Source of the DNA: Centroscyllium fabricii
Lineage: Eukaryota
Direction: 5' to 3'
Assembly: GCA_051313645.2 (NCBI GenBank)
Contig: JBNRSN020000012.1
Span: 69,626,001 to 69,690,000, forward strand
DNA length: 64,000 nucleotides
The translations under genes were made by a program, and so were the position numbers. Every line of letters starts with the position of its first letter. The first letter of the stretch is position 1. The notes beneath the pieces are model-generated. The model was not told where the DNA came from and did no database searches. It saw nothing but the letters and a program-made list of their open reading frames with translations. Shown here one piece after another: positions 4,330 through 54,444 of the stretch.

Positions 4330-4514
4330 AAAATCAAAACAAAAAATGCTAGAAATACTCAGGTCAGGCAGCAGAACTGACAAAAGGTCATTGACCTGAA
4401 ATGTTAACTCTGTTTCTCTTTCCACAGATGCTGCCTGACCGGAGTGTTTCCAGCATTTTCTGCTTTTATTTTAAATTTCCAGCATCTGCAGTATTTTGCT
4501 TTTGTAATACGCTG
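4330..4514. mobile_element. Penelope-derived fold-back insert (family A) with degenerate hammerhead core
   Basis: Inverted ends. CTGACAA-AGGTCATTGACCT-GAAA at 4377-4401. Flanking duplication TAGTACAAAATGT at 4317-4329 and 4515-4527. Confidence 0.7.
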
Positions 4515-4584
4515 TAGTACAAAATGTGATGGTTACTACAGTTAACTATACAGGTCCAACCAATCTTGCATAAACAAGAACTCT

Positions 4585-5152
4585 GGGGCGGGGGGAACAG
4601 GGCGGTTGGAGAAACATTGGCCTGGATATTAACAGGGGACGGGTTACGAGGCTTACAGCGGGGTGGGGGGGGCGAAGTTTTGGATGGGAAGTCCGGGTTT
4701 CCCCACAGGATGTGGTGTTTTAACTGGCCTGGAAGTCAGCCTGATTGACTTGCAAGGCACAAGACCAGTTAGATCAGATCCGCGACCCCAGTGGGCGGGG
4801 AGGTCCGATCTCCAACCTGGTCGTGTGGAGGGCCCCGATCACTGACCCCGGAGGGAAGGACTCCAGCTCCTCCTGGCCCACAAGCAGCGCTGTGACGGCA
4901 CTTATCTCCTCACCGAAGCTGCCCTTGCCTTGCTTCAGCTGCAGGCTTTCCCGAGGCCTGAGAAACTCTGCTTCCCACTAGAAAACCTAAATCCGAGACT
5001 TCTAGCCTCATTAACATTTAAATTGCCAACCCGCCCATCCCTTGTCCTGCCTCCATAAAACCCGGAAGTAGGCGGGTTGGGGTCAGGGTTCATAATTTTT
5101 AAATTTTCACTCCCCACCCATTTTATGTGTGCTAAAATGCTGCCCCCCCCCC
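4585..5152. mobile_element. GC-rich non-autonomous element, probably Harbinger-type MITE
   Basis: GC/CpG-rich block in an AT-rich intron ending aaaatgctgcccc, like the TIR of 41797-42622. The left TIR is not clearly preserved. Confidence 0.45.
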
Positions 5153-5459
5153 CATTAAGTCTGCAATTTAATCTTCTTTTGTAGAGTAATATTTTTGTGC
5201 ACAAAAGAACACCTATGAAGAACTTTCAATTTTGTACTTGAGCTTTTTGCCAGGTAATTCAAGTTTCTGGAAATCCGTGACCGACTATTTCCTTCAGCAC
5301 TTAATTTAAAAAAAAATCAAATCCTGTACTTAGAATGTGCATAAACATTTTACCAAGCCTGACCATTCACTTCCTGCCAAGACTTACTGTTTGTAAGCCC
5401 CGCCTCTTTGTCCACCCCTATGTAGTGATGGAAAACTACTGATGACAAAATCCCCCAGA

Positions 5460-6600
5460 TTAATCTGGAAAGGAGTCGATTGAGAGGTGGTCTGATAGAG
5501 ATATTCAAGATTGTTAAAGGTATAGAAAAATTAATCCGGAATATTACTTCAAATTAAACTGCAGGAGTAGAACTAGGGGACACTGGTATAAAATAGAGAA
5601 GGGTATCTTATGGGCAAATATCAGGAAATTTTTAACACCGTGTGATCAAGTATCAAATAAACTTCCAGATAGAGTAGTGGAGGCAAAATCTCTTGCATGT
5701 TAAATAAACAACTGAATGCTACAATGGAGATACATTAGGATTCTTAACTTTGTTTTCAAATCCCTCCAGTGCCTCGCCCTTCCCTATCTCTGTTACTTCC
5801 TCTAGCCCTACAAACCTTTGAAATCTCCGCGCTCCTCCAATTCTGGCCTTATGCACACCCTTACTGGGCTGGAGCGCTTCAGCTCTGAAGAAAGACTGGG
5901 CAGGCTGGGGTTGTTTTCCTTGGAGCAGAGAAGGCTGAGGGGGACCTGATTGAGGTGTACAAAATTATGAGGGTCATAGATAGGGTAAATAGAAAGGAAC
6001 TTTTTCCCCTTGGTAGAGGGGTCAATAACAAGGTGACATAGTTTCAAGGTAAGGGGTGGGAGGTTTAGAGGGGATTTGAGGAAGAACTTTTTCACCCAGA
6101 GGGTGGTTGGAATCTGGAACTTACTGCCTGAAAGGAAGCTAGAGGCAGGAACCCTCAACATTCAAGAAGCATTTAGATGAGCACTTGAAGTGCCATAGCA
6201 TAGAAGGCTACGGACCAAATGCAGGAAAATGCGATTAGAATAGACAGGGCTCGATGGCTGGCATAGACGCGATGGGCCGAAGGACCTCTTTCTGTGCTGT
6301 GAAACTCTATGACTCTATCCTTGATTTTCATAGCTTCAGCTGCCTAGTCCCTGAGCTCTAGAATTCCCTTCTTAAACCTCACCACCTCTTTAAGATGCTT
6401 CTTAAAACCTAGCTCTTTGATCAAGCCAGTCCTAATATCATCTTATGTGGCTTGGTGTAAAAATAAAATTTGATAACGCTCCTGTGAAACGCCATGGGAC
6501 ATTCTACTACATTAAAGGCGCTACATAAATGCAAGTTGTTGTTGTTGTAGGATCCCTCCGGATGGATGAATTCTTATGGGCCAAATGGTCTTCCCCATCT
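5460..6600 (+). mobile_element. Nested LINE 3' ends: old CR1, interrupted by L2, interrupted by younger CR1
   Basis: Old CR1 (5460-5740) resumes at ~6550. The L2 3' end (5745-5860 plus 6320-6547) ends ataaatgcaagttgttgttgtt. CR1 5865-6317 ends ctctatgactctat. Confidence 0.7.
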
Positions 6601-7024
6601 GTGCAACAGGATCACATAATTACAATCATACCTGTATTTATACATTTCTATAATTAGACGGAGCTTCATAAACTCCCCATACCGATACCCGCAGCATCAC
6701 AGAAGCATGCTGAGGAAAATTTGCGTTGTCCAGATTTTTCCATGGGCAGTACCGTGGGAGAGTCACTAGTATGTAGTAAATCTGTAGCGACTGCATGCTT
6801 ACTCATCAAATGTACCAACAATTTCAAGTCTTTATGCAGTGGGTTTCTGTCTCCTACGGTATATAACTTTTACTCCATGGTTATTGATCAGTGTACAGTA
6901 CTGACAGCAAATGCATATTTCTGTAATTTTACAGCCACATTGTGAAAATGTGAAACTTGATTTGCATCAAACAGTACAAGAATACTGAGTCTCCTCTGTT
7001 GGGACCTTGCGCAAAAAGGCTATA

Positions 7025-11054: not shown

Positions 11055-11148
11055 AACAGAAAATGCTGGAAATACTCAGCAGGTCAAGCAGCATCTGTGG
11101 ATATAGAAACTGTTAATGTTTCAGGTTGATGACCCTTCATCAGAACTG
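11055..11148 (-). mobile_element. Penelope-derived insert (family A) with hammerhead core
   Basis: Minus strand reads AGTT-CTGATGA-AGGGTCATCAACCT-GAAAC. GTAAATAAA is duplicated on both sides. Confidence 0.7.
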
Positions 11149-11413: not shown

Positions 11414-11525
11414 GAGCTGTATGCTGCAAGCAGATTCTGAAAAAATCCGACAAGTCTGGATCAAAGCTGTTCAAGCTAGCATAGCTACAGCATACAAAGA
11501 GAAAGGGGAAGAGAGCTATGCAGAT
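11414..11525 (+). CDS. ACAP2: ACAP2 exon, end of PH domain (SCMLQADSEKIRQVWIKAVQASIATAYKEKGEESYAD)
   Basis: ttacag|G AGC...GCA GAT|gtgcgt, 112 nt. Confidence 0.95.
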
Positions 11526-12261
11526 GTGCGTATACAGTATATTTTCACTTCTTAAACCTCATAGACTGCAGCGAGTTCAAGGAGAAAGCCTGCCACCGTC
11601 ATGGGATGGGCAGTAAATGCAGCCTTGCCAGCATCTTCCACATCCCAAGAGAATTTTTTTTTTAATTGACAAGTGGCCCTGTTTAATACTTTTACCTGGT
11701 GGGAGATTTGCAGGCTTGAGCCGAGCCATGCAATCATATATCTAATACTGACATCTCAATGTAATGTTAGAGGATGCTGTGCAGTTAGAGGCATCACGTT
11801 TGAGTATCACCTTTCTAGATCCATTGAGCAACGAGGAAGCCATTCAGCCCATTGTGCTTGTGGCAGTGTTAGCTCTTCAACCGAAACTATACACTAATCC
11901 TATTTTCCTGACCTTGGTCTAATTCTTTTTATGTTTTCCTTTTCAAATACTTATTAAATCCCCTTTTAACTATTGTTATCTCTGCCTCAATAACCATTTG
12001 TGGTAAAGAATCACATATTTTAACGACCTTCGGTGTGAAAGAATATTCGAATTAACTTCTCTTGTTTTTCGTGATAATTCTGAGATTATACCCCATTGTT
12101 ACCGATTGCAAAGAGCTGAAGAGAATGGAACCATAATTTCACCAGTTTTCCCTCCTACATAACTACCTTATTTTAGAACCAAATTCAAAAGCAATTCTGT
12201 GGTCACATTGGCATGGTTTTACCACAAGTTGTGATTGTAGTTTTTGTCGCAATAAAACTAT

Positions 12262-12550
12262 ATAGAAACATAGAAGATAGGAGCAGGAGTAGGCCATTCG
12301 GCCCCTCGAGCCTGCTCCGCCATTCAATGCGATCATGGCTGATCATCCAAATTCAGTACCCTGTCCCTGCCTTTCCCCCCCATATCCCTTGATCCCTTTA
12401 GCTTTAAGAAATATATCTAACTCCTTCTTGAATATATTTAATGAATTGGCCTCTACTGCCTTCTGTGGTAGAGAATTCCACAGGTTCACCACTCTCTGGG
12501 TGAAGAAATTTCTCCTCATCTCTGTCCTGAATGGTTTACCCCTTATTCTT
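12262..12550 (-). mobile_element. CR1 (HER1-like) LINE 3' end
   Basis: tagaaacatagaa tail, stem-loop, and antisense FFTQRVVNLWNSLP. Confidence 0.85.
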
Positions 12551-13029
12551 ACTAAATAATGGAGACTCTGAGTCCATCACATTTTAAAGTGCATTCTACC
12601 AAAATGGAAGAAATTTTGCATCGATCAGTGTATCTACTTTTTTTCTAGTGTTTCTGACTTCGTAAAATGCTGGTTGCAGTTGATATAAAAGAAAAATTCA
12701 ATCTTGTGCTGTGCTGTCATAAAATGAGCAATTATTGTTACACTATTTACTAGTCCAGCTCCTGTGAGTTAGGAATTTGAAGATTACCAACTTCTGCATG
12801 TCAGTATTATCTTATTCACAAATGTCTCAAATTTGAATGCAGATTATAGTGGATTAAGCATCATTTGTTATCATGAAAGACATAGAGAGCATGACTGTTG
12901 ATGTTTTTAGTTAGTGTCATTTTATGAAGACAAATGCTTCTTCATAAGTGAATCATTCCAGGTATAGTTATTTTTAGTTTGTTTTGGCAGACTTGGTCTT
13001 GCAATTACTGCTACAATAACTTTAACATG

Positions 13030-13490
13030 GTGAAACATTCAAAATAACCAAGGACACTGAGCAGGAGGGTGAGGAGAGATGACATAGGAACAAGAGTAGG
13101 CTGTTCAGTCCCTGTAACCATACATGGCTGATCTGTACCTCCAATGCCATTTACCTGCCTTTGATCCATGCTCCTTGATACTCTTACCTAATAAAAATCT
13201 GCCAATCTTGGTCTTACAAATTTCAATCGACCCAGCACCCACGGCCTTTTGGGGGGGAGAATTCCAGATTTCCACTACCCTTTGTGGAAAAAGTGCTTGC
13301 TACTTTCACTCATGCATGGTTAACTCTAATGTTAAGAGGTGGAGACATGACGATGAAGGCTCTGCCATTGACGGAGTGGAGGGTTGGGAATGCTCAGAAG
13401 GCCAGTTTGGTGAGATGGTAAAAGAGCAACTGAGTGCTGTGGAGGCAGGCGTGGCAAGAAGAGGCCGAGAAGCTGCAATGATTTAAAAAT
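13030..13490 (-). mobile_element. L2 remnant interrupted by a CR1 3' end (~13082-13330)
   Basis: CR1 tail acataggaacaagagtagg and antisense QRVVEIWNS. The flanks resemble the L2 3' end at 52140-52445. Confidence 0.5.
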
Positions 13491-13636
13491 ATAAATGTTG
13501 CTGTGTGATGCCACGTCTACCACATTCAGGTTAGATAAGTGACCATTTGCAGTTTAAAATCTATGCTGTTATGGGATTACATGGAACTTCTTTTGAAAGA
13601 AAGAAAAAGTAGTAAACCTGTTATTTGCTTCTCCAG

Positions 13637-13845
13637 AAATTAGATCGAAGATCCTCCCCCTCTACCAGCAGTCTGGATTCTGGGAGTGAATTGAAGGAGC
13701 GACCGGTGAAAGGAGAAAGCGCACTCCAGCGCGTGGAGTGCATTGCTGGCAATATGAATTGCTGTGACTGTGGCCAGGCAGACCCACGTTGGGCAAGCAT
13801 TAACCTTGGAATCACACTATGCATTGAATGTTCAGGAATTCACAG
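13637..13845 (+). CDS. ACAP2: ACAP2 exon, ArfGAP zinc finger (CCDC...CIEC)
   Basis: ctccag|AAA TTA GAT...CAC AG|gtatta, 209 nt. CxxC-x16-CxxC with [19 protein letters not shown]. Confidence 0.97.
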
Positions 13846-14068
13846 GTATTAATGTGAAAAAGATGAAAAGTTATGCTAGATTGAAAAATATGTGTGCGCA
13901 TTCACCTATTTGATACTAATTGGGCTCAGTATTCAGTACTGTTGCTGCTTTTCACTGAAGCAAAATTTGGATGAACAGCTTACAGGTAACTTGAAATCTT
14001 TGCTATGACTAATTTTGGTAGGGTGCTGCGCTCTCAATTGGAGGACAAAATACATTCAAAACTTGAGA

Positions 14069-14294
14069 TAACAACAGAAAATGCTGGAAAAACTCAGCAG
14101 GCCAGGCAACATCCGTGGAGATAAATATAGAGTCGACGTTTCGGGTTAGGACCCTTTGTCAAGACTGTCTTGACAAAGGATTCTAACCCGAAACGTCGAC
14201 TCTATATTTCTCTCCACGAATGTTGCCTGGCCTGCTGAATTTTTCCAGCATTTTGTTATTTTGGATTTCCACCATCTGCAGTATTTTGCTATCG
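14069..14294. mobile_element. Penelope-derived near-perfect fold-back insert with variant hammerhead cores
   Basis: Arms of ~90 bp are inverted around ~14165. TTCAAAACTTGAGA is duplicated at 14055-14068 and 14295-14308. Confidence 0.8.
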
Positions 14295-14514
14295 TTCAAA
14301 ACTTGAGACTTGATTCTGCTCAATTGGGGAGGTTTGCAAAAGAAGATCTCTAAATATGAAAAAACAAGAACAGAAAGATTAGCTGGACCATGACTGATTG
14401 ACCACAAGTATAATTTATTTCTGCCTTGTTGAGCTTCAGTACCTTGCAGAGGTTTATCTAGTGATGAATGCCTGTATTATTTGTGCTGTATTAGTTTATT
14501 TTCTCTGTGTTTAG

Positions 14515-14584
14515 AAGTCTAGGTGTCCATTTTTCTAAGGTGCGTTCCCTTACTCTGGATTCATGGGAACCTGAGCTCTTAAAA
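14515..14584 (+). CDS. ACAP2: ACAP2 exon, ArfGAP (SLGVHFSKVRSLTLDSWEPELLK)
   Basis: tttag|A AGT CTA...TTA AAA|gtgagt, 70 nt. Confidence 0.95.
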
Positions 14585-14725
14585 GTGAGTTTAGCCTTTT
14601 ATATACATATATATATATTTTTTTTTAATCGCGCTTTGTATGATGGTGTTCTATTACAATTTCATTTAACGGACTAGTTTTGCCAATTAACCATATTTGC
14701 GTAAATTAATGTAGAGCGAATAGTA

Positions 14726-15468
14726 CAGGTTGAAGTTCGTTAATCAGGCACCCGAAAAACCGGCAGCTTCAGTCATTCGGCACAGATTTTCCTGACTGCC
14801 CGGCGCATGCGCAGACAATTCAAAATGGCTGCCGTCGGGGCTGGGCTTCTCTTTCACCTAACATACTCACTGGATCCTGGCTTAGTGACCACCCCGATGC
14901 CGATGGTGAATTCCAGGCCAAGAAGATGAGGTGTTGTGCCAGCTGCCTTTCGCAGTAAGCGATACCGGCAATTCTCGGTGGCCATTGCTGCCGGAGGCTC
15001 CTGCCTGGCTGCGTGCTGACGTCACTGCGATTCGAAGCTGGCGTGCGGTGGCGTCACGTGAGCCGGGCTTGAGCCGCGCATTGGGCCTCAGGCCCGCTGA
15101 AGCTGTGCAGGCCGCTCCGTGATACGCAGCTGAATCGATGGCTGCGTGCTGACATCACCGCGATCCGAAGCTGGCGTGCGGTGGCGTCACGTGAGCCGGG
15201 CTTGAGCCGCACATTAGGCCTCAGGCCCGCTGAGGCCGTGCAGCCCGCTCCCTGACCCGCAGCAGAATCGAGTGCGAGTTCCACCCGACCCTTGGGCCGA
15301 AAATCAACTGCCAGGTACCGGCGAGCGCATGCGCAGAGCATTGAAAGTTTTGCGTTGGCCATTTTTAATGTTCTGCACATGCGCCGCTGTGACTTCAATA
15401 ATTCGGCGTTTTCAACAATCCGGCAGGGTGCTGGTCACAACCCTGCCGGATTAACGAACTTCAACCTG
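14726..15468. mobile_element. Tc1/mariner (pogo/Tigger-like) MITE
   Basis: TA|CAGGTTGAAGTTCGTTAATC...GATTAACGAACTTCAACCTG|TA, perfect 20-bp TIR. Internal duplication with 133-bp period (15006 and 15139). Confidence 0.9.
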
Positions 15469-15820
15469 TATTACACAACAAAACAGTCAAATTTTCCATA
15501 ATTTCTGCCTATGCAGCATCCAAAATATTTAATTTAGACCTCCCCACTTTAGAACAATTGCAGTCGAGATGGTGAGGTCTGATTATAATAGCATAATGAT
15601 GACATTCGTTTTAACAGTGGATCTTGCAATATAGAAATGAATTTTAGGAGAGATACAGCTCCCTTGGCATGTTGGAAGATTTGAATCAGCAAATAAGAAT
15701 TTAATCATGTTGTCAGAACAACAGTTTTACTATTGGGGGGTGGGGGGGGCACCAATTTATTTTGTGTTCCATAAAAGTTGAAGCTTAAGCTGAAATCTGT
15801 ATTCTCATTTTGTTTGGCAG

Positions 15821-15915
15821 CTTATGTGTGCGTTGGGAAATAGCGTTATAAATAGAATATATGAGGCACAGGTGGAAGAAATGCATTTTAAAAAGCCAAA
15901 TGCAGGAGACTCGAG
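15821..15915 (+). CDS. ACAP2: ACAP2 exon, ArfGAP (LMCALGNSVINRIYEAQVEEMHFKKPNAGDSR)
   Basis: ggcag|CTT ATG...TCG AG|gtaaat, 95 nt. Confidence 0.95.
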
Positions 15916-16002
15916 GTAAATAATGAACCTTATTTCTGTAAATAATTAACCTTATTTCTAAGTCGATTTCTATTGGACAAACACTTCGACAAAGGTTCAA
16001 AA

Positions 16003-16292
16003 GTGTCAGCTTGGCTCAATAGATTTTAAACTGTGGTTCAATCTGCCTGTTCTGATGGATGTTAAAGATCTCATGGCACTATTCGAAGAAGTGCAAGTTA
16101 TCCCAGTGTCCTGGTCAATATTTATCCCTCAACCACTACACTAAAACAGATTAACTGGTCATTCATTTTATTTCGGGCAGTTTTGCACACAGCATACTCA
16201 GTCATTGTATTCAAAGTAATTCATTTTATGTGAAGCACAGCAAGATATTTGAGGGATGTGATGAGAGGCTCTATATAAATGCAAGACTTTTT
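16003..16292 (+). mobile_element. DeuSINE/SacSINE-like SINE remnant with L2-type tail
   Basis: gttaaagatctcatggcactattcgaagaag...cctggtcaatatttatccctcaacc core and tail tatataaatgcaag. Antisense homolog at 47845-49000. Confidence 0.6.
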
Positions 16293-16296
16293 TCTT

Positions 16297-16699
16297 GCAC
16301 GGCACGGTGGCATAGTGGTTAGCACTGTTGCATCACAGCACTGGAGACCCGAGTTCAAATCCAGCTTCGGGTACTATCTGTGTGGAGTTTGCACATTCTC
16401 CCCGTGTCTGCGTGGGTTTCCTGCGGGTGCTCCGGTTTCCTCCCACAGTCCAAAGATGTGCGGGTCAGGTTGATTGGCCATGATAAATTTGACCCTTAGT
16501 GTTAGGGGGATTGAATATGTGGGGTTACGGGGATAGGGTGGGATATGTGTTGGTGCAGGCTCGATAGGGATCGAGGGATTATGGGGAGAGGGCAGGGGCG
16601 GGGTACTGGGTTTGGATGATCAGCCATGATCTCATTGAATGGCGGAGCAGGCTTGAAGGGCCAAATGGCCTACTCCTGCTCCTATCTTCTATGTTTCTA
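16297..16699 (+). mobile_element. tRNA-derived V-SINE (HE1-like), full length
   Basis: A box tggcatagtgg, B box gagttcaaatcc, V core ctgtgtggagtttgcacattctccccgtgtctgcgtgggtttcc, and CR1-derived tail. Confidence 0.9.
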
Positions 16700-17018
16700 A
16701 TGTTGATGTAGATTATTCAAAAATATATTAACTTAACTGCTACTCAGAGTAAAAATCATTTAATAGGATAACGGGCAGCTTCAGATGTAGATTAAATAAA
16801 TTGTATTTTTATAACTATAATGTAAAATGGATGTTAATTTTCAGGTGCAAAACTTGTAAAATATCAAATAGAAACTAGCATATAATGTACTAATAAATGA
16901 CTAGCTTGTGCCTTGCATTTCACACCGCATATAAACACACTCTAACTTGTGTTGCTTTTAAAATGTGAGAAATTACGAGCTTTCTAACTTTCAAATGTAT
17001 TTCATGCACTACTGTTAG

Positions 17019-17197
17019 GCTCGAGAAAGAAACTTGGATCAAAGCTAAGTATGTTGAGAAGAAGTTTATAAAACCCCATAGATTTTCTTCATCAAAAGAA
17101 AGAACAAAGATGTTACCACTGCCCAATCAACTTGAGGGGATACGTGAAAAATCACCCAAATCTCTCTCTGTACCAGGGAGCACTTCCAAAATTCCAG
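17019..17197 (+). CDS. ACAP2: ACAP2 exon, end of ArfGAP plus linker (LEKETWIKAKYVEKKFIK...)
   Basis: tgttag|G CTC GAG...CCA G|gtaata, 179 nt. Confidence 0.93.
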
Positions 17198-17304
17198 GTA
17201 ATACCCTATCTGTGATGTAGCATGTGGAAATAGAACAACTACCAATGACTACTGAAAAAATAAATAATTATTAATTGAATTGTGTATAAAACAAAGATGC
17301 AAAA

Positions 17305-17986
17305 CCTGAAGGCAGCAGGACAGGTGGATAAGGTGGTTAAAAAGGCATATGGGATACTTGTCTTCATTAGCCGAGGCATAGAATATAAGAGCAGGGAGGT
17401 TATGATGGAGCTGTACAAAACGCTGGTAAGGCCACAGCTGGAGTACTGTGTGCAGTTCTGGTCGCCACACTACAAGAAGAATGTAATAGCTTTGGAGAGG
17501 GTGCAGAGGAGATTCACCAGGATGCTGCCTGGGCTGGGGAGCTTCAGCTATGAAGAGAGACTGGAGAGGCTGGGGTTGTTTTCCTTGGAGCAGAGGAGGC
17601 TGAGGGGGGGACCTGATTGAGGTGTACAAAATTATGAGGGGAATAGATAGGGTGGATGGAGTGGAACTTTTTCCCTTGGTTGAGGGGGTCAATAACTAGG
17701 GGGCATAATTTCAGGGTAAGGGGCAGGAGGTATCGTGGGGATGTGAGGAAGAACATTTTCACCCAGAGGGTGGTTGGAGTCTGGAACTCACTGCCTGAGA
17801 GGGTGGTAGAGGCGGGAACCCTCACAACATTCAAGAAGCATTTGGATGAGCACTTGAAATGCCATAGTACACAAGGCTATGGACCAAATGCGGGAAACTG
17901 GTAGTAGTATAGACTGGGATTGATGGGCAGCACGGACGCGATGGGCCGAAGGGCCTCTTTCTGTGCTGTATTACTCTATGACTCTA
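17305..17986 (+). mobile_element. CR1 LINE 3' fragment (frameshifted)
   Basis: ORFs 17282..17620 and 17656..17904 (YKTLVRPQLEYCVQFWSP; FTQRVVGVWNSLP). Tail ctctatgactcta. Confidence 0.92.
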
Positions 17987-18225
17987 GTTCTGCCATCTGT
18001 TAATTTTTTTATACCAGTGGCCAACAACCATGTCTTTTTCACCTGCAGTAAAGAATTCATAAATATATTAAGCCTACCAAAGTCAGAAATGCACTTCAAA
18101 CTATTGCTAACTAACAATCTATCTTTCAATGTTCTTGTATTTTTCTTTGAATTTCTCAAAAACAATTTCCTCTGTTTTCCTCTGTTTCAATGGCTGCTTT
18201 GCTTTGCTAACATGCATGTAACCAG

Positions 18226-18327
18226 CTGCTGTTAGTAACACTGAGCCACGTCGGGAGTCTCTCTTCTGCCCAGATGAGCTAGACTCGCTATTCTTCTACT
18301 TTGACACCGCTTCAAAATCTAATAGTA
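18226..18327 (+). CDS. ACAP2: Symmetric cassette exon (AAVSNTEPRRESLFCPDELDSLFFYFDTASKSNS), ACAP3-like motif
   Basis: taaccag|CT GCT...AGT A|gtaagt, 102 nt, phase 1-1, open frame. Matches recalled ACAP3 RRDSLFCPDELDSLFSYFD. Confidence 0.85.
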
Positions 18328-18856
18328 GTAAGTACTGCACATATGGAGCTTCTTGGTGCCTATGCTACTAAATTCATCCACTGCTTGATTCCACTTTATA
18401 GGTGCATATGTATGTTTTTTTTGTGCTTTTGACCTCCCAGAGCATTTTAAAACATTTTGTTCAAGTAGCATTTTCCATCATGCATTTGATTTTCCCCTTG
18501 TATTTGTATTCAGTGTATTTCATTGTTAACCATATTGGATATTGCAGAAAGAGTAGCAATGTGAACTGATGCATTTTGTAGCAGTTTCTGTGAAATTTGG
18601 GATGTTTGGTTTTAAATCATATGTTCTCATTTGTGATTTGTTTTTCATCAGTGTAAACCTTATCTCAATATGAAGGAGCATTCTATGTTTGTGCATTCAT
18701 TTTTACATTAGTAAAATATTGTAGCACCAAAAAGGTAGTGTCAGTTTCTTTTGTGTTTATAGATCCCCAGGGAACACAGGAACATAAAATTAAAATAAAG
18801 TTAAACTTAGTTTTATTTAAAAGCATTCAGAATACAGTACTTGTGTTCTGTTAGTC

Positions 18857-19022
18857 TAACATAAGAAATAGAAGCAGGAGCAGGCCAATCGGCCCCTCGA
18901 GCCCGCTCCGCCATTCAACAAGATCATGGCTGATCTGATCCTAACCTCGAATCTACTTTCACGCTCCATCCCACCCGAACCCATGTGATCTCCCGGGAGA
19001 GGCGAAAAAACAGATAAAAACC
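18857..19022 (-). mobile_element. CR1-type 3' UTR fragment
   Basis: aacataagaaatagaagcaggag tail and stem-loop. Antisense homolog of 90-245. Confidence 0.7.
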
Positions 19023-19331
19023 GATCTCTTCTGATTGTATGTTTGTTATGTTAACATTGGGCTGTTAGGTGATAGGTAAATGATTAACAATTTGCATTGA
19101 ATATGGTTTAAAGCCTACTTTCTGTAGACTGATTTAAACATACCTTTGTTATAGCAAATAAGTGTATTAATCAAGAATATGACTGATTGCTTGATGCTAA
19201 ATATTCCACCACCTTTTTGTTCAGAAAGTATTAATCATATTCATAGAAACCTTGTTATATCAACTAAAACTGGAAAAATTATAATCGGTTTGACATGAGG
19301 CAATCTTATTTAACTTGTCCGTTTCTTTAAG

Positions 19332-19427
19332 GAGTAAAAAATTCAGACAGTGGTGTGCCGAATAGCGCTCAGGGCAGCAAGGATGTGGTAATGTCTGTGA
19401 CCTCCAATAACAGCTTATCCGAACCAG
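19332..19427 (+). CDS. ACAP2: ACAP2 linker exon (VKNSDSGVPNSAQGSKDVVMSVTSNNSLSEP)
   Basis: tttaag|GA GTA...CCA G|gttggt, 96 nt, phase 1-1. Similar to recalled ACAP2 VRSNDSG...ANSLYEP. Confidence 0.85.
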
Positions 19428-19781
19428 GTTGGTAAGATTGGCCAAGGTGAATAATAGTCGCAAAAATTAATGTTTACATATAAATGTATATCCATCTTGT
19501 GTTCTCCTACACTTTACATGCATATTCTACTAACCATTAAATGCAGTTAGAACTCCATTCATTCTAACCTGAACTTTGGTCATCAAATCGACAATCTCTC
19601 TGATCGGTGTATTTTGAGTAGAATCAGAAATGTGTGTTGAATGCTATAATATATTTAGAATACTGTGTTACTAGCTCCAAGATTAAGTATCTGTAACTGT
19701 ATAATCTTTGATCACAGTCAATGAAAGTTATGCTAAAGTTGTTTTTTGCCTCCTTAGAAAATTTGGAAGCCTCTATTATAG

Positions 19782-19969
19782 AGGGAGGCAGTAGGGAGTC
19801 ATCCGTCTTCCATGAAGAGAAAATTATTCCTGCAGGATTGCAGTTATATAACGCTGCACATGTTCGAAGTCTTCCAGATATGGCAGAAGCATTAGCCCAT
19901 GGAGCTGATTTGAACTGGGTTCATGCGGAAGATAATAAAGCAACACCTCTTATTCAGGCTGTGCTGGGG
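19782..19969 (+). CDS. ACAP2: ACAP2 exon, first ankyrin region (GLQLYNAAHVRSLPDMAEALAHGADLNW...TPLIQAVLG)
   Basis: ttatag|AG GGA...CTG GGG|gtaggt, 188 nt. A second in-frame acceptor gives a start at 19758. Confidence 0.92.
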
Positions 19970-20084
19970 GTAGGTTTGCTGTTATCTTCCCTCCCTTGAG
20001 TTTAGGGAACAAGAAATACTGTGGTTTAGTTAGAATCTGAGATCAGAAAACCACAGTACAAGAGATAAAGTAACTTAGATTCCA

Positions 20085-20296
20085 ACCAGAAGGTCACGGG
20101 TCAAGCTCATCCATCCACCTCAGTCTACCAGAAGGTCACAGGTCAAGCTCATCCATCCACCTCAGTCTACCAGAAGGTCACAGGTCAAGCTCATCCATCC
20201 ACTGCAGTCTACCAGAAGGTCACCGGTCAAGCTCACCCATCCACCTCAGTCTACCAGAAGGTCACCGGTCAAGCTCATCCATCCACCTCAGTCTAC
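20085..20296 (+). repeat. Minisatellite, 42-bp unit x5
   Basis: accagaaggtcacNggtcaagctcatccatccacctcagtct repeated five times with few substitutions. Confidence 0.95.
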
Positions 20297-21119
20297 TTTT
20301 CAACTTGGCTTCTTGGTGCAGCAACTCACTTTCAAACGTTCACTTCAGGCAGGGAATACTGACACTTCCCTTTCTCCAATTAAATAATATTTCTGGCCAG
20401 TTGACCGTGGAGAAATATTGGTGGAAACATCTGCAGCCTTGATTATTTTGCTTTCCTAAATGAAGGTGATTTAGCAGTAGCAAAGAAATTAGGGAAGAAA
20501 AAATTGAATTGACCAAATAGGAGGGACCTAAAAATGATAGGAATGTCAGGACGTGTGTATCATTACCCATAACGTAACCTGCAATGTACTGCACTGGTTG
20601 GAAATGATGTGCCGGACCCCAAAAGTGAAGCTTGGTTATCAACATCCTCTGATCACTGAGATTTATTACTACCTGGTTACACACTCTTGTTACACACATT
20701 AAGATGTACCTCTTCATAAGATGTACTGTTTAATTTTTTAAAATAATTTCTAAATAATCATGTTCCAATCAATGGCATGCTCTCATGATTGTATCACTTG
20801 CTTCACAGTGATAGTTCTATCACAGGGCAATAAAATTTGTGCATGTCATAATAAAATGAACCACATGGCTATAATTTACTTTTATCGCAAACCTTTATTT
20901 TTCCTTTTTCATCCCCTCACTTTAATGCTTTTTCTCCCCTCATTGTTTTCTCGCTCCTTCCTTTTTCCTCCTTCCACTGTCCTGTTCTGGGTATTTTTCC
21001 TTCACCTCGATGTGTTCTTCATTCTTTCCTTCTCTCCTGTGTACTGTTTATTTATTAATGTTTTAGTTCACTTTTACCTGTGCTACATTTGGATCCTGAA
21101 GTTGTGTCTTTTATCACAG

Positions 21120-21229
21120 GGCTCTTTGGTTGCTTGTGAATTTCTGCTGCAGAATGGAGCAGATGTAAACCACCGAGACACTCATGGCAGAGGGCCACTG
21201 CATCATGCCACCATCTTGGGGCATACTGG
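21120..21229 (+). CDS. ACAP2: ACAP2 ankyrin exon (GSLVACEFLLQNGADVNHRDTHGRGPLHHATILGHTG)
   Basis: tcacag|GGC TCT...ACT GG|gtaaga, 110 nt. Confidence 0.96.
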
Positions 21230-21397
21230 GTAAGAAACGTGTTTACCTTCACTGGTCTATGATGTGTTTGTTTCTCTCTCTGTCTAATAGACTGCAATAA
21301 ACTGGTTGGTGCTTTTGGACCATTTTATGTTTTCTTGCAAAAACATGCCTCGGGATTATTGAATGCTTTGAGCCTTCAAAAAATATATAATTCAAGG

Positions 21398-38172: not shown

Positions 38173-38817
38173 TGCCCCAGTTTCACTGGAGGCGAAGAAT
38201 GCCAAGAATCTCAAGAATCGTCAAGAATCGAAATTCTTGGCGATTCTGCAAAAAATGTGAAAATTCTTGGTTGATTCTTGGCGATTCTTGGTGAATTCTT
38301 GGCGATTCTGGACAAGGTTACGAATCTATCACGAATTATTGTAGGAATGAGGTACGAATCACTCACGAATATGCAGAATTAATTAAGAATCCACTACGAA
38401 CTCCACGAATAAGTTACGAATTCTACGAATTAGCTACGAATTATCTACGAATTGCATTCGTGGGCATTCGTGGTGAATTCGGCATTTTTCCACGAATTTG
38501 AGAAAATCAAGAATAGCCAAGAATGCACTACGAATCCACTACGAATCAGTTACGAACGGTAAGAAAGGGTCACGAACGGTAAGAATGGGTCACGAATTGT
38601 TTAGGAATCTATCACGAATTGGACATTCGTGAACCCTCCCACGAAATTTTTTGACAAACAAAAACTTTCTTGAAAACTCAAAGAAATCCCGCGAACTACC
38701 GCGAACTCTACGAATCCACTACGAATCAACCACGAATTGCAAGAATGACCCACGAATCGGGCAAATTTCACAATCGGCACGATTCGGCAATTCGTAGCCT
38801 CCAGTGAAACTAGGGCA
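38173..38817. mobile_element. Non-autonomous DNA transposon (Harbinger-N-like) filled with ACGAAT/AAGAAT motifs
   Basis: TIRs tgccccagtttcactggaggc and gcctccagtgaaactagggca (one mismatch). Confidence 0.85.
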
Positions 38818-38898
38818 TAAGATAAATCAAAATACACAACACAAAAAAAATACTAAAAGTGTGGAAAAAATAATTTCCCCCAAATTATTGAATTATAT

Positions 38899-44400: not shown

Positions 44401-44736
44401 CCAGTAAATTGGAACAGCACACTAATGTAGACAGAAGATTCAATTTTCTATCTCAATCATTCTGGAGAGGCAAATTCCACCTGAATTCTCTGAATCTGGA
44501 AAACATCCATACATGGTACTGCCTGTTACAAACTTGTTCAAACGTTATTAAACAATAGTTAGGGGACTGCAAGAAATGAAAAATGAATAGAAACCTGCTT
44601 ACTTTAGTACGTAGGAGAGAAGATATCGAGATGATTGAAGGTTGAGTAGCTTTGCCCATATCAATAGATCCATTATATCAGGCACACTGTAGCTCAGAAA
44701 TGTAAAGTTGCATGTGAACCAGGCATGATTTGGTTA

Positions 44737-45688
44737 AATGTTAGAAGTTACACAACACCAGGTTATAGTCCAACAGTTTTATTTGAAATCACAAGCTTTC
44801 GGAGAGTTGCTCCTTCATCAGGTGTAGTCGAGAGATGCATACAAACACAGCATATATAGTCGGAGAACAATGCTGGATGATTACAGGAAATCTTTCCAAC
44901 TGCCTTTCATCACACCTCGGCAGAGAGACATTCATAGCAATCAAAGGTGTGAATGGTGTCCAAACAGGTCAGTCAGGAAGACACCACCTGAAGAACAATG
45001 AGTGGAGTCACACTCTGACAATGGATGAGCGGACACCGCACAACAATCGCCAGGCAGGAGTGTTCCCTCCCAGTTGGGGAACACTTCAGCAGTCAAAGAC
45101 ATTTAGCCTCCGATCTTCGGGTAAGCATTCTCTAAGGCGGCCTTCGAGACACACGACAACGCAAAATCATTGAGCAGAAACTGATAGCCAAGTTCTGCAC
45201 TCATGAGGACGGCCTCAACTGGGATCTTGGGTTCATGTCACGCTGCATGTAACCCCACCTGATGTAGAGTCATCCAGACTTGAGTCGTCTTTGGCTAGTT
45301 CTCACTAAGAATTAAAAAAAAAAATTGTTCTGTGTTGGTTTTTCACACAGACCACAGCATGTGTAACATTTGACCCTTTGTGACTCCACTCATTGTTCTT
45401 CGGCTGGTGTCTTCCTGACTGACCTGTTTGGACACCATTCACACCTTGGATTGCTATGACTGTCTCTCTGCCGAGGTGTGATGAAGGGCAGTTGGAAAGA
45501 TTTCCTGTAATCATCCTGCATTGTTCTCCGACTATATATGCTGTCTTTGTATGCATCTCTCGACTACACCTGATTGAGGAGCAACGTTCCGACAGCTTGT
45601 GATTTCAAATAAAACTGTTGGACTATAATCTGGTGTTGTGTGACTTCTAACATTTGTCCACCCCAGTCCAACACCGGCACCTCCACAT
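44737..45688. mobile_element. Penelope-like element remnant (family B): inverted pseudo-LTRs around a GIY-YIG endonuclease C-terminus
   Basis: Arms of ~275 bp are inverted. 45020-45253 encodes IARQECSLPVGEHFSSQ..DLRVSIL*GGLRDTRQRKIIEQKLIAKFCTHEDGLNWDLGFMS. CATGATT(T/A)GGTTA is duplicated at 44724-44736 and 45689-45701. Confidence 0.85.
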
Positions 45689-46954
45689 CATGATTAGGTT
45701 ATGCTGAGCATGCCACAAAAGGATATTTTGATAAGAAACTTGTAAGCAACTAAGTTATATAAATCAGCAGATCATATGGGGTATTTAAATTTGACCCAGG
45801 GAGATTGAACTCAAGGATTGTAACTCGAAAGACACTGTTTTGCCAGCTAAGTTTGTTAGGTTGGAAGTACTTAACTTTGTTTAAGGAATTATACTTTCAA
45901 TAAATGAACTTTGCGAGTGTATTGTCTTACCATCATTGATCAATTTTGCATAATTAAGTTAAGTCGTTTACCCTATCTCATTTTGCGCTGCAAAATTTTA
46001 CCCTGCCAACGTGTTGCCCTTGCCTGCTGCAGAAGAGGGAGAAAATGGAAGGCAACAGAAGCAAATGTAGGAAGTGGATGCTGAGAACTGAAGCATTATT
46101 CAGAAATATTCACAGTACTCTCAGTCAATAACTTCTCCTAAGAACCAATAGTCCTTCCTGCAGAAATGCTCCATGCAACCTTGTTTCCCCGCAGGTTCCT
46201 GACCATCCACCATGCTCACTATCATCTGGCTAAACAGCCAAACAAACATTTCACATTCCTCATATCGCAATATACCCACCGCTACCATGTATGAAAAACT
46301 GAGGCAACATCAGCTTGAGCAGAAAATATTTTTACTTTTAGTAGTTCATCTAACTTTATCTAACTGGATGGTCCTCCAATGAGATATCTGGGAGGCTGGA
46401 GCCTGCAAGATGATTGGCTAATGGCTTCTGCATAAGGCTGTTGGGACTGTGATGGTTTTCCTCTCCTGCTGCGTACGTTCTGAGAAGGACCCGTTGCAGG
46501 CTACATCTCTACTGTTGTTGCTTGGGCAGCCTGGCCCTACTATCTCACTGATACATGCAGACAACTTTGGGGACTGACCGAAGGGTTTTCTTGACCTGCT
46601 ATCACGAGAGACAGCAGGATCATGTGAGCACATTCCTGCAGACCATTGTTACTGGGTACTCACTCTGCAAAGCCATTGATCAGTGAATGGCACAGACTGA
46701 ATGGTACCAATGAGAGGAGTGCCTGACATGGCCAAGAAAAGTCAGTCATGGACCTGCAGCTTCAAATTTAAAAGCAGTTACAAGTGCCCACCAGCTGGCT
46801 TCAACAGCTTAATAGTAGTTGAAGTTGCCTGGACTTCCCTATTTAGAGCAATGGCCTTAAAAGGCACAGGACCAGTTAGCACAACTGTGGTGCAGAACCA
46901 AGGCTCCGCAGAAGTAATGCGATGGAAAAGGCGGCAGTCTGTGTAAGTTTCTGG

Positions 46955-47675
46955 TCTTCTCTTCTTAGGCAGCCCATCGGAACTGAGGATGACTTGCTTC
47001 CACACTAAAAATGAGTTCCCAGGTGACTGATGAGTCCAATGCGGGACCTACAGTCTCTGTCACAGGTGGGGCAGGTGGTGGTTGAAGGGGCGAGTGGGTG
47101 GGGTGCTTGGGTTGACGTGCGCTCTTTTCGCTGTTGTGCTTGGCTTCCGTTTGCTCCCGGCGAAGAGACTCGAGCTATTCGGCGCCTTCCCGGATGTTTC
47201 TCTTCCGCTTTGTGCATTCTTGGGCCAGGGATTCCCAGCTGTCGGTGGGGATGTTGCATTTTTTCAAGGAGGCTTTGAGGGTGTCCTTGAAGCATTTCCT
47301 CTGCCCACCTGGGTCTCTCTTGCCATGCCGGAGCTCCGAGTAGAGCGCTTGTGTTGGGAGTCTCATATCAGGCATGCGGACAATGTGGCCCATCCATCGG
47401 AGCTGATCGAGGGTGGTCAAAGCTTCAATGCTGGGGATGTTGGTCTGAGCGAGAACACTGACATTGGTGCGCCTATCCTGCCAACGGATTTGCAGGATCT
47501 TGCAGAGGCAGCGTTGATGGTACCTCTCCAGCGCTTTGAGGTGCCTGCTGTACAAGGTCCATTTCCCTGAAGCATACAGGAGGGCGGGTATCACTACTGC
47601 TCTGTTGACCATGAGCTTAGTGCTGGGTTTGAGGTCCTTGACTTCAAACACTCTCTTCCTCAGGCGACCGAAGGT
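46955..47675 (-). mobile_element. RTE-clade LINE 3' fragment
   Basis: FGRLRKRVF..STKLMVNRAVVIPALLYAS..QLRWMGHIVRMPDMRLP and C-terminal CPTCDRDCRSRIGLISH. (AAG)n-type tail. Confidence 0.9.
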
Positions 47676-47689
47676 TTCTGGTGAGCAGG

Positions 47690-47830
47690 TGCTGTCAACT
47701 AGAGGCCAGCAGAGTGCCAGAAGAAAGTTCTGTTCCTGAAGCTGGAATGCGGCTTGGCTGTCATAATATAAGAGGCCAAATACAGAACGGTCAGGGCGTG
47801 AATGGGAGGGGAAGTTAAAGTGGCGAGGCA
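47690..47830 (-). mobile_element. Penelope GIY-YIG C-terminal remnant
   Basis: RHFNFPSHSRPDRSVFGLLY..QLQEQNFL resembles the HFN..H....L...L...R.L.EQ pattern. Confidence 0.5.
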
Positions 47831-47844
47831 CAGGGGGAAAAAAA

Positions 47845-49000: not shown

Positions 49001-49016
49001 GTGTATTTGAACATGA

Positions 49017-49470
49017 TGTGGAGGTGCCGGTGTTGGACTGGGGTGGACAAATGCAAGAAGTCACACAACACCAGATTATAGTCCAACAGTTTTATTTTAA
49101 ATCACAAGCTTTCGGAGCTTCTGCCCCTTCGTCAGGTGAAAGAGAAGCTGACTTAAAGAACACACATATGGGAGGAAGAGAGAAATCTGATCTCCCACAT
49201 CTCACCTTAGCAAAGAGACAGACAGAGCACACAAAGGCATATTAACATATTCATTGATCTCAGACTGATGTGTTAAAATATGTTAATACGCCTTTGTGTG
49301 CTCTGTCTATCTCTGCTAAGGTGAGATGTGGGAGATCAGATTTCTCTCTTCCTCCCATATGTGCGTTCATTAAGTCAGCTTCTCTTTCACCTGACGAAGG
49401 GGTAGAAGGTCCGAAAGCTTGTGATTTAAAATAAAACTGTTGGACTATAACCTGGTGTTGTGTGACTTCT
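49017..49470. mobile_element. Penelope-derived fold-back element (family B) with hammerhead cores on both strands
   Basis: Inverted arms of ~195 bp. Cores at 49103-49138 (-) and 49388-49423 (+). TGTATTTGAACATGA is duplicated at 49002-49016 and 49471-49485. Confidence 0.85.
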
Positions 49471-49853: not shown

Positions 49854-50360
49854 ATGGGATTGTGGAGAATGATTGTACAGACTAAGGCGAAGTTCATCCC
49901 ATTCCGCTCCTGTCAGTTTGCCCTGTTATTTGCAGCTGCACTGGCCGTTTGTGCCTTTTACTACTTTGGATCCAACCACGAAAATTTTTCCAGCACCACC
50001 AGGAGAATGAAAGAAAACCAGGCAGGGAAGAGCGGGCCGGGCGATGCTCCACCGGCAGTGAATCCCAGTGGGAAAAAACCGGCCGGATCTCCAGCAAGTG
50101 CTGCAGCCGGTAACGGCGAAGCCGGCAATTCGCCGGGGAAAGGGACCATGCAGTTTCATGCTCTTATGATGTTTACCAAAGTAGACAAAAACTACGGTCT
50201 CCAAGAAAAATTTACGGTTGCCATCAAGTCGATGGTAAATCACGCAGTGTTTAAAGACGACGAGGTGCTCCATCTGCATTTTGTTGCTGATGCAGGCAGC
50301 AAAAAAATAGGAGAACCGCTCCTGCAGAAGCTGCTGCAAGCCGCCACCTTCAAGTACCAG
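49854..50360 (+). CDS. XXYLT1: Xyloside xylosyltransferase 1, exon 1 (169 codons, type II membrane anchor)
   Basis: Kozak ACAATGG. ALLFAAALAVCAFYYFGS..ENFSSTTRRMKE and HALMMFTKV..EVLHLHFV match recalled XXYLT1. Donor CAG|gtacct, phase 0. Exon 2 was not seen in the window. Confidence 0.95.
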
Positions 50361-50391
50361 GTACCTTTCCAAGTTGTCTGCATTTTAGGGA

Positions 50392-50837
50392 TGATGTGGA
50401 GGTGCCGGTGTTGGACTGGGGTGGACAAATGCAAGAAGTCACACAACACCAGGTTATAGTCCAACAGTTTTATTTGAAATCACAAGCTTTCGGAGCGTTG
50501 CTCCTTCCTCAGGTGAAGTGACGAGATTCATTTAAACATAGCATATATAGAGAGAGAGAACAATGTGGTCTCTCCAACTGTTCCACATCACACCTCAGCA
50601 GAGAGACATCAAAGCAATCAAAGGTGTTCTAACATGTCAATTTGATGCTTTGATGTCTCTCTGCTGAGGTGTGATGTGAAACAGTTGGAGAGACCACATT
50701 GTTCTCTCTATATATATATATATATATAATGTTTAAATGAATCTCGTCATTTCACCTGAGGAAGGAGCTGCACTCCGAAAGCTTGTGATTTCAAATAAAA
50801 CTGTTGGACTATAACCTGGTGTGTGACTTCTTACAAT
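50392..50837. mobile_element. Penelope-derived fold-back element (family B) with two intact hammerhead cores
   Basis: Inverted arms of ~185 bp. Cores at 50481-50515 (-) and 50753-50787 (+). TGCATTTTAGGGA is duplicated at 50379-50391 and 50838-50850. Confidence 0.85.
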
Positions 50838-52509: not shown

Positions 52510-52653
52510 ATATAATAGCAAAATATTGCGGATGCTGGAAATCTGAAATAACAACAGAAAATGCTGGAAAAACTCAGCAGGCCAGACAGCATCGGTAGAG
52601 AGAGAAACAGAGTTAATGTTTCAGGTCTGGGACCCTTCATCAGCTTCTTCTTT
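52510..52653 (-). mobile_element. Penelope-derived insert (family A) with hammerhead core
   Basis: Minus strand CTGATGA-AGGGTCCCAGACCT-GAAAC (52619-52643). AGCTTAAATCCCTC is duplicated at 52496-52509 and 52654-52667. Confidence 0.75.
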
Positions 52654-52715
52654 AGCTTAAATCCCTCTATCACTTGTTTTCATCTGCCTGAGCATTTCAT
52701 ACCCCTGTTTCAGGT

Positions 52716-53003
52716 CATAGAATCATAGAAGATAGGAGCAGGAGTAGGCCATTCAGCCCTTCGAGCCTGCTCCGCCATTCAATGAGATCATGGCTGATCT
52801 TTAGCAAGCTAGTACCCCGTCCCCGCCTTTTCTCCGTAACCTTTAATCCCTTTAGCTTGAAGAAATATATCCAATTCCCTCTTGAATATGTTTAATGAAC
52901 TGGCCTCCACCGCCCTCTGTGGCAAGGAATTCCACAGGCCCACCACTCTCTGAGTGAAGAAATTCTTCCTCATGTCTCTCCTAAATGGTTTACCCCTTAT
53001 TCT
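52716..53003 (-). mobile_element. CR1 LINE 3' end
   Basis: catagaatcatagaa tail. Homologous to 12262-12550. Confidence 0.85.
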
Positions 53004-53210
53004 TTATATTCTAATATTACAGCCCATGAACAGACTTCAAGTTTATAGATGTTATGTTGTCCTGAAGAGAGGGTGGAAAGATGACCGTAGTTTAGGGTGG
53101 ACCAAGCAGTGCAAATACAGTGGCATCAATATAGTAAAATCAAAAAATGATGAGCAGGAATGAAGTCTGTCATCATTTTTACAGTGAAGTTGTCTTTCAC
53201 ATTTCCATGT

Positions 53211-53608
53211 AACATAGAAACATAGAAGGTAGGAGCAGGAGCAGGCCATTCGGCCCTTCGAGCCTGCTCCGCCATTCAATGAGATCATGGCTGATCATCC
53301 AAACCCAGTATCCCGCCCCTGCCCTCTCCCCATATCCCTCGATCCCTATCGATCCCGCACCGACACATATCCCACCCTATCCCCGTAACCCTACATATTC
53401 AACCCCCCTAACACTAAGGGTCAATTTATCATGGCCAATCAACCTAACCCGCACATCTTTGGACTGTGGGAGGAAACCGGAGCACCCGGAGGAAACCCAC
53501 ACAGACACGGGGAGAATGTGCAAACTCCACACAGATAGTCACCCGAGGCTGGATTTGAACCCGGGTCTCCAGTGCTGAGGCAACAGTGCTAACCACTGTG
53601 CCACCGTG
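53211..53608 (-). mobile_element. V-SINE (HE1-like)
   Basis: Colinear with 21398-21790. Confidence 0.9.
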
Positions 53609-54088
53609 TGGAAGTTTCCCACTTTGCATTCGGATGGTAAGTGCATTCCTTTTGAATAATTACAAGTGAATGAACACCAAGAATTTTTTGTGGTGTATTT
53701 ATTTTTTGGTGAGAAATTGAGGTGATAGGCCAAGTGCTGCATACCGCCAAGATTAGAGAGAGAAAAAGATGAGTTAAATTAGGAAGGAGTGGCAAAGTGA
53801 CGTGAAGTTTGTGTTTGACATCCTGAAGACGAGCATGAAAGAAGGAGTGAGCAAGGTAGGAGTCCCACAGTTTAGAGGTTTGGGAAATAATGAATTAGAA
53901 TAGTGTGATTGCTGGATGGAGGAAAAGCTTGTAGGACAGTATATTTGACACAATGAGAAGGCGCGGAGAAATTGCTACCATATTGGGTTCTTATGGGATC
54001 GTTTCACAGCACTTGGTGTAAGTGGACCTTGCTCCCCACAATCCAGAGACTGTACCGTTTTACACTTGCAGAGTTCCATAACCTAGAG

Positions 54089-54444
54089 TAAAATCAGAAA
54101 ATGCTGGAAACACTCAGCCGGTCAGGCAGCATCTGTGGAGAGCGAAAAAGAGTTAACGTTTCAGGTCACGGACCTTTCGTCAGAACTGAGAAATATAAAG
54201 GGTTTTAAGCAAGTGCAGAGGCAGGGAAAGGGGGAATGGGAGGAAAGAACAAAAGGGAAGGCCTGTGATCAGGTGCTTATCACAGTTATATCTCTAACTT
54301 TTTCTAGTTCTGACAAAAGGTCATCGACCTGAAACGTTAATTTTGTTTCTCTCTCCACAGATGCTGCCCGACCAGCTGAGTATTTCCAGCATTTTCTATT
54401 TTTATTTCTGATTTCCCCCTCATCCACAGTATTTTGCTTTTGTA
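54089..54444. mobile_element. Penelope-derived fold-back insert (family A) with one intact hammerhead core
   Basis: Minus strand AGTT-CTGACGA-AAGGTCCGTGACCT-GAAACGTT-AACT (core 54159-54183). The plus copy at 54310-54334 has CTGACAA. TCCATAACCTAGAG is duplicated at 54075-54088 and 54445-54458. Confidence 0.85.

Follow-up and report, generated by a model that had tools for sequence, protein, structure and literature searches.

The 64,000-bp window analysed here (contig JBNRSN020000012.1 of the shark Centroscyllium fabricii, positions 69,626,001–69,690,000) contains parts of two host genes, XXYLT1 and an ACAP-family ArfGAP gene, and eight short inserts with hammerhead ribozyme motifs, probably derived from Penelope-like elements (PLEs). 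The original prediction had placed eight such inserts in two families and described six of them as fold-back, and both points were borne out by blastn, arm comparison and arm profiles (Table 1). Together the inserts occupied 2852 of the 64,000 bases (4.5%). Family A comprised five inserts (at 4332, 11055, 14069, 52510 and 54089) and family B three (at 44737, 49017 and 50391), and the two families had no mutual match in blastn. Profiles built from the arms recovered eight family A and six family B arms across the window, and no further copies below an E value of 0.8. The inserts were 92–952 bp long and mostly consisted of a pseudo-long terminal repeat (pLTR) only; coding sequence was absent from seven of the eight. 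In the fold-backs, sister arms were 86–96% identical and separated by loops of 1, 18, 25, 55, 107 or 366 nt, while the inserts at 11055 and 52510 were solo arms.

Table 1. Features of the window, numbered by position, with the direct repeats that bound each insert.
Feature	Position	Strand	Description	Direct repeat
Insert 1, family A	4332..4514	+	42-nt inverted arm without hammerhead; tail-bearing arm with broken hammerhead	13 bp, at 4317 and 4515
Insert 2, family A, solo	11055..11146	-	Tail-less arm; intact core; non-palindromic stem III (ACAU)	9–11 bp, weak
ACAP-family ArfGAP gene exons	11414..21230	+	PH-domain exon ~11414–11524; ankyrin exon ~21120–21230	
Insert 3, family A subtype	14069..14292	+	Near-perfect palindrome; 88-nt arms, 94%; 1-nt loop; tail on right arm	14 bp
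U3-A8 hammerhead variant, insert 3 left arm	14127..14166	-	Compensated stem I (AGUC/GACU), G-C closed stem II, ACGU palindrome, GUC triplet	
Insert 4 left arm, family B	44737..45012	-	Inverted pLTR with intact minimal hammerhead, C3 at 44821	13 bp with one mismatch, at 44724 and 45689 (whole insert)
Insert 4 endonuclease remnant	45010..45252	+	C-terminal 80 codons of Penelope GIY-YIG endonuclease	
Insert 4 3' part	45253..45691	+	3' untranslated region (UTR), direct pLTR 45379–45654, then 35-nt tail	
Insert 5, family B subfamily	49013..49470	-	Fold-back; arms ~195 nt, 96%; 25-nt loop	15 bp
XXYLT1 (xyloside xylosyltransferase 1) first coding exon	49854..50360	+	Host gene	
Insert 6, family B	50391..50837	-	Fold-back; arms ~195 nt, 95%; 18-nt loop	12 bp
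Insert 7, family A, solo	52510..52653	-	Arm with tail; intact core; stem I 5' strand and palindrome gone	14 bp
Insert 8, family A	54089..54444	+	Fold-back; about 88–89% arm identity; ~107-nt spacer	14 bp

All eight inserts were bounded by direct repeats of 9–15 bp, mostly 12–15 bp, with an AT content of 57–91%. In zones picked by eye around the insert ends, the duplication score was at least 12 for six of the eight inserts, compared with none of 300 random zone pairs. The 14 arm ends all fell at two sites per family. One arm ended short of its sister, by ~35 nt in family B and by 38–48 nt in family A, leaving a tail of that length confined to one arm in each of the six fold-backs; the two solo inserts used one end site each. 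No two of the six fold-backs had the same centre, a pattern that argues for separate truncations and against a fixed short element. Tandem copies of either family were not found in the window, where the inserts were dispersed and head to head or solo. The family B tails (45656–45691, 49013–49047 and 50391–50425) all ended within 1–2 bases of a common ATG-containing site, and four of the six family B arm ends overlapped the target duplication by several bases, which suggests short primer-template pairing. A recurring 7–9 bp helix between the segment after the hammerhead and the tail did not exceed shuffled sequences in six of seven arms. Directly after the cleavage site, the family A pLTRs (54345–54362, +, and sister arms) had a pyrimidine tract ending in CAG and then an ATG, resembling a splice acceptor. 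Introns are known within PLE pLTRs.

The descriptor used to identify hammerhead motifs called for a stem I of 3 bp or longer, CUGANGA, a single unpaired base, a stem II of 4 bp or longer, GAAA and NNUH. Five matches had a palindromic stem III tetramer (C3 at 44821-, 49135-, 50512-, 50756+ and 54183-) and one did not (C3 at 11143-); 200 windows simulated with an order-2 Markov model gave no match. The motifs agree with the minimal type I consensus in the literature (PMC4209133, supplementary figure S3), down to the unpaired base that follows A9 and the palindromic 15.2–16.2 pair. No Rfam hammerhead family was among 13 matches at E values up to 5, which is not unexpected because the motif has no stem III. 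The scan proposed in the original prediction was thus positive by descriptor and negative by Rfam family, and its assignment of the CUGANGA/GAAA core, with a short stem I and a palindromic 4-nt stem III, to the minimal type I hammerheads was upheld. Both regions that it had named for cleavage constructs, 50753–50787 (+) and 54150–54190 (-), contained an intact minimal hammerhead by descriptor.

The motif strings that had been written out for the two families were real, but their integrity was overstated. Thirteen arms reached the motif, of which five were fully intact, one was a U3-A8 variant and seven were damaged in the core, stem I, stem II or palindrome. The family A string was complete in one of seven arms (54151–54187, -) and the family B string in three of six, with a variant stem II in a fourth. 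The palindrome AGCU was present in five of the six family B arms (the sixth had lost the preceding A), and ACGU in four of the seven family A arms. Both hammerheads were intact in insert 6 only; the left-arm motifs of inserts 5 and 8 were also intact, the right arm of insert 5 had a damaged stem II and the tail-bearing right arm of insert 8 had lost G8. In insert 1, G8 and the palindrome were gone, as was the 5' strand of stem I at the junction. The right-arm motif of insert 4 (45566–45602, +) had three core changes, and one of the damaged arms, that of insert 2, kept its core next to a non-palindromic stem III. CUGANGA was absent from both arms of insert 3, whose U3-A8 variant had been missed before; the right arm (14167–14201, +) had the same variant with a damaged stem II. 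Its presence on both arms implies that the variant was already in the template, which is good evidence that a functional ribozyme was kept in the source elements. Across the 13 arms, 87% of the cells in the proposed structure were standard pairs, and the covariation score was 0.60, compared with 0.27 for shuffled and 0.05–0.11 for slid alignments. This covariation, including the U3-A8 swap, indicates that the hammerhead was under selection in the source elements.

A coding link to a known retroelement was found in insert 4. The 80 codons at 45010–45249 (+), with two in-frame stops, were 84% identical over 80 amino acids (aa) to the C-terminus of a 643-aa reverse transcriptase (RT) protein of Heptranchias (P0001), which bears RVT_1 plus an endonuclease end. 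This identity bore out the earlier claim that a GIY-YIG remnant in 44737–45688 links family B to an element encoding RT and a GIY-YIG endonuclease. The GIY and YIG motifs themselves were removed from the remnant by 5' truncation and the histidine-bearing end alone was kept; the 77-aa remnant, without these motifs, was unrecognised by Pfam. All of its named homologues were from sharks. P0001 and an 881-aa relative had a CX4CxxC linker and a cysteine pair between GIY- and YIG-like motifs, and P0001, P0004 and P0018, all partner proteins, had the CX2-5CxxC linker and CCHH endonuclease motif of the Neptune clade. Linker and cysteine pair define the endonuclease elements of the Neptune and Nematis types (Craig et al., bioRxiv 10.1101/2021.04.23.441226). 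The distribution among vertebrates suggests that the family B partner belongs to Neptune rather than to Nematis. Insert 4 had, between its duplications, an inverted pLTR, the truncated open reading frame (ORF), a 3' UTR, a pLTR and the tail, the typical PLE layout (PMC3846280; Craig et al.). A single ORF with RT and GIY-YIG domains was thus indicated for family B only, through the remnant, and no intact ORF was present in the window. The Penelope origin given in the original prediction was supported by the hammerhead type, the pLTR layout and the family B remnant.

The non-coding parts of the inserts had no match among 186 fetched proteins. The family A DNA pattern gave no match in metagenome, prokaryote-genome and viral contigs, which hold little or no shark DNA, so that these blanks are uninformative. 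A 43-codon open frame in a family A pLTR was rejected as the start of an ORF, as it had no protein match and was broken in other arms, and a tblastn match at 37619–37903 was rejected as noise spanning stops. A short frame at 47715–47837 (-) resembled the end of another, more distant endonuclease of the Penelope type (best E value 1e-4 among 167 queries, profile E value 0.33, homologue search blank); it could belong to the partner of family A, a link that is not demonstrated. This frame adjoined a long interspersed element (LINE) 3' fragment at ~46950–47690, which we take to be of the RTE type. Pieces of the Penelope ORF were also included in shark predicted isoforms of host genes (XRCC5, PPP1R12A-like, FSTL5 and others; P0002, P0010, P0012–P0015 and P0175), either as annotation artefacts or through exonisation.

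Several observations bear on whether the ribozymes work in the inserts. The two hammerheads of one fold-back lay on opposite strands, so a cis dimer is impossible within one transcript. Because the arms are head to head, transcription of either strand reaches the complementary arm first and the ribozyme arm second. When whole inserts with 60-nt flanks were folded, the core was predicted to be paired with a probability of 0.74 in the arm at 44821 (-) and of 1.00 in the other four intact arms and the U3-A8 arm. Every one of these intact cores sat inside a fold-back; both solo arms (inserts 2 and 7) were antisense and had lost the palindrome. The only intact motif on a host sense strand, 50756+ in XXYLT1 intron 1, was predicted to be fully paired to the earlier-transcribed arm. 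Sister arms differed at 4 of 55 core positions and at 30 of 665 flank positions (p=0.32; five inserts, with insert 1 excluded for its short arm without a motif, and low power). The excess core conservation anticipated in the original prediction was thus not seen between sister arms, and the core gave no sign of selection after insertion. On the predicted folds the ribozymes are probably not working in these inserts, and a dense ribozyme system acting in introns and a promoter, as had been proposed, was not supported.

Stem and loop II gave a different picture. Here sister arms differed at 12 of 65 positions, compared with the same 30 of 665 in the flanks (p=1e-4), and without CpG sites at 7 of 53 compared with 24 of 643 (p=0.006), in a class of positions chosen after inspection of the data. 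The arms of insert 8 had different loops and differed upstream of them, with a gap of ~10 nt among the differences; they were 88% alike, and each was 90–91% like insert 1. The two arms of a fold-back could each have been copied from its own pLTR template, supplied either by separate RNAs or by the 5' and 3' pLTRs of a single tandem transcript, with a dimeric RT-endonuclease copying one arm at each staggered nick. The palindromic stem III may then serve to pair the two RNAs, much as a dimer signal does in retroviruses, no less than to cut them. We regard such copying as doubtful. In inserts 3–6, sister arms were 93–96% alike but only 75–89% like other inserts, with private alleles in common, and the near-equal arm lengths suit self-priming, by which palindromic junctions have been explained (PMC3846280). 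Faster mutation of short hairpins may account for the excess.

Taken together, the best explanation of these data is that the inserts arose independently of one another, each as a heavily 5'-truncated insertion of one of two endonuclease-bearing PLE families, an explanation to which we assign a probability of about 0.87. Family B would be of the Neptune type; family A is assigned to PLEs by anatomy, because it has the same inverted arm, tail, duplications and two end sites. In such insertions, the GIY-YIG endonuclease of an autonomous copy would nick both strands of AT-rich DNA ~12–15 nt apart, in keeping with the duplications seen. RT would start inside the pLTR RNA, at either of two fixed sites ~35–45 nt apart, a step that matches the observed end sites and is modelled on an Anolis element in vitro. 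It would copy through the uncleaved hammerhead and halt early. One arm alone would give a solo stub, and two arms, one from each nick, would meet head to head in a fold-back of which only one arm has a tail. The hammerhead of the source element would be the standard minimal type I ribozyme of pLTRs, which from the literature probably cleaves slowly as a dimer or with the help of a protein. In the stubs it would be a passenger, decaying neutrally and shut by the fold-back duplex. Some results weigh against this interpretation. The evidence is confined to copies inside one window, and no ORF was tied to family A by DNA pattern or protein searches, each of them weak. The duplication score of insert 2 was 9, a value matched by 6 of 300 random zone pairs. 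Two of five covariation measures did not exceed shuffles (82/500 and 167/500), and the rows of the 13-arm test are related rather than independent. Folding of two copies, which is not an activity test, gave strand-swapped stems and not a catalytic dimer with an intermolecular stem III. Finally, simple neutral decay does not explain the excess of sister-arm differences in stem and loop II.

The inserts, and family A above all, might instead be a non-autonomous family of SINE-like or retrozyme-like pLTR derivatives (SINE, short interspersed element), whose short RNAs the hammerhead would process and a PLE protein would mobilise in trans. Such a family would account for the seven non-coding inserts and the missing family A ORF. 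Solo minimal hammerheads are widespread in the literature, retrozymes derive from pLTRs, and pLTR sequences were enough for trans mobilisation in a rotifer (PMC3846280). Retrozymes are, however, defined by tandem units, mostly with canonical hammerheads; here there were no tandem arrays and no common 5' end, every centre and length was different, and insert 4 continued from the pLTR into the 3' UTR and ORF. We therefore consider a non-autonomous family improbable.

Still less probable is the co-option of one or more inserts as working ribozymes or hairpins that regulate XXYLT1, through its promoter or intron 1, or the ACAP introns. The positions of inserts 5 and 6, beside a CpG-rich stretch and 30 nt into XXYLT1 intron 1, and the intact sense-strand hammerhead of insert 6 would suit such a role, but that hammerhead is the one predicted to be fully paired to the earlier-transcribed arm. 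The remaining intact motifs were antisense to host genes or outside them, the core was not conserved in excess and minimal hammerheads are inactive as monomers in the literature. The long inverted arms, and matches of Rfam microRNA models to inserts 5 and 6, could also be taken to mean that the fold-backs are miniature inverted-repeat transposable elements (MITEs), that is, DNA transposons, or microRNA-like hairpins with an incidental hammerhead match. Every Rfam match lay below its gathering score and the microRNA matches were rejected as generic hairpins. Variable duplications, one-sided tails, solo arms and hammerhead covariation do not suit that explanation, and the continuity from ORF to pLTR in insert 4 contradicts it, making it the least credible of those considered. 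The sub-threshold microRNA-like hairpins were at the centres of inserts 5 (49209–49317) and 6 (50572–50690). A duplex of ~190 bp is predicted for insert 6 in the XXYLT1 pre-mRNA, a possible substrate for editing or small RNAs.

Compared with known endonuclease-bearing PLEs (PMC3846280; Craig et al.), the inserts were alike in strong 5' truncation, an inverted 5' copy, a tail of 30–40 nt at one end, variable duplications and palindromic junctions, but much shorter and mostly composed of the pLTR alone. Duplications of mostly 12–15 bp were slightly longer than the 8–10 bp of rotifer PLEs (PMC3846280). The motifs shared with published PLE hammerheads (PMC4209133) CUGANGA, one unpaired base, stem II, GAAA, the palindromic 15.2–16.2 pair, a short stem I and U-rich and AU-rich flanks; a turtle entry has AGCU/CUU, identical to family B. 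Stem II was shorter in the shark (4–5 bp) and in family A was often closed by A-U or G-U. The U3-A8 variants listed in PMC4209133 are flatworm rows, from Schistosoma PLEs, whereas insert 3 is from a shark. Cartilaginous fish are absent from that alignment, and no shark or skate was found in supplement file 2 (file 1 lay outside the search). In earlier work, minimal hammerheads showed no activity as monomers and little as dimers (PMC4209133), or needed protein (PMC11167929). On RNA of the Anolis element PAc, RT starts in vitro at two internal sites, which set the tail (Frangieh et al. 2024, PMC11167929) and are comparable to the two arm-end sites here. Its AT-rich targets, the nicking and extension of both strands and the use of uncleaved RNA as template also fit the inserts. 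PAc belongs to the Poseidon clade (PMC11167929), and the family B partner has the Neptune/Nematis linker. Non-LTR retrozymes (PMC7229834; bioRxiv 10.64898/2026.07.22.740005) are, like the inserts, non-coding, hammerhead-bearing and PLE-related, but form head-to-tail tandem units, whereas the inserts were dispersed, head to head or solo, and had tails and duplications.

PLE hammerheads, inverted pLTRs, tails and duplications have all been published (PMC4209133, PMC3846280, Craig et al.), retrozymes have been reported in one chondrichthyan genome (PMC7229834; bioRxiv 10.64898/2026.07.22.740005), and an expansion of PLEs has been reported in whale shark introns. A published description of the present shark motifs was not found in the literature, with Repbase, Dfam and subscription journals outside the scope. 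Two shark pLTR families and one U3-A8 variant are thus added to a known class. As seen here, PLE stubs can make up 4.5% of a window that contains genes, and they can pass for MITEs or microRNA hairpins. A head-to-head PLE insertion would always transcribe the antisense arm first and so silence its ribozyme, which may make such insertions tolerable in introns. Short, two-armed insertions bounded by duplications also provide material for a genome-wide test of how the inverted pLTR forms, a step of the PLE cycle called unresolved in the papers cited here.

Among the host genes, the PH exon of the ACAP-family gene matched ACAP1 (E value 1e-6), and the gene is presumably ACAP2; insert 2 was antisense to it. 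The end of insert 5 lay ~385 bp upstream of the start codon of XXYLT1 and narrowly outside the CpG-rich stretch. The original prediction had placed the inserts in gene introns and a promoter; insert 4, however, probably lies between genes and not in an intron.

The window contained further repeats of other types. At 58968–63943 (-), a long terminal repeat (LTR) retrotransposon, which we take to be of the Ty3/Gypsy type, had 222-bp repeats that were 98% alike and split ORFs with protease, RT, RNase H and integrase-like motifs. An element at 38171–38819, with 23-bp terminal inverted repeats (22/23 match) and an interior of short ACGAA/AAGAA-type repeats, resembles a non-autonomous DNA transposon. 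A 42-bp unit was repeated in tandem, about five times, at 20085–20338, and a 133-bp tandem duplication was present at 15006–15271. At least nine copies of a SINE/LINE-tail family, plus several LINE RT fragments, were found at many places within 12258–63108.

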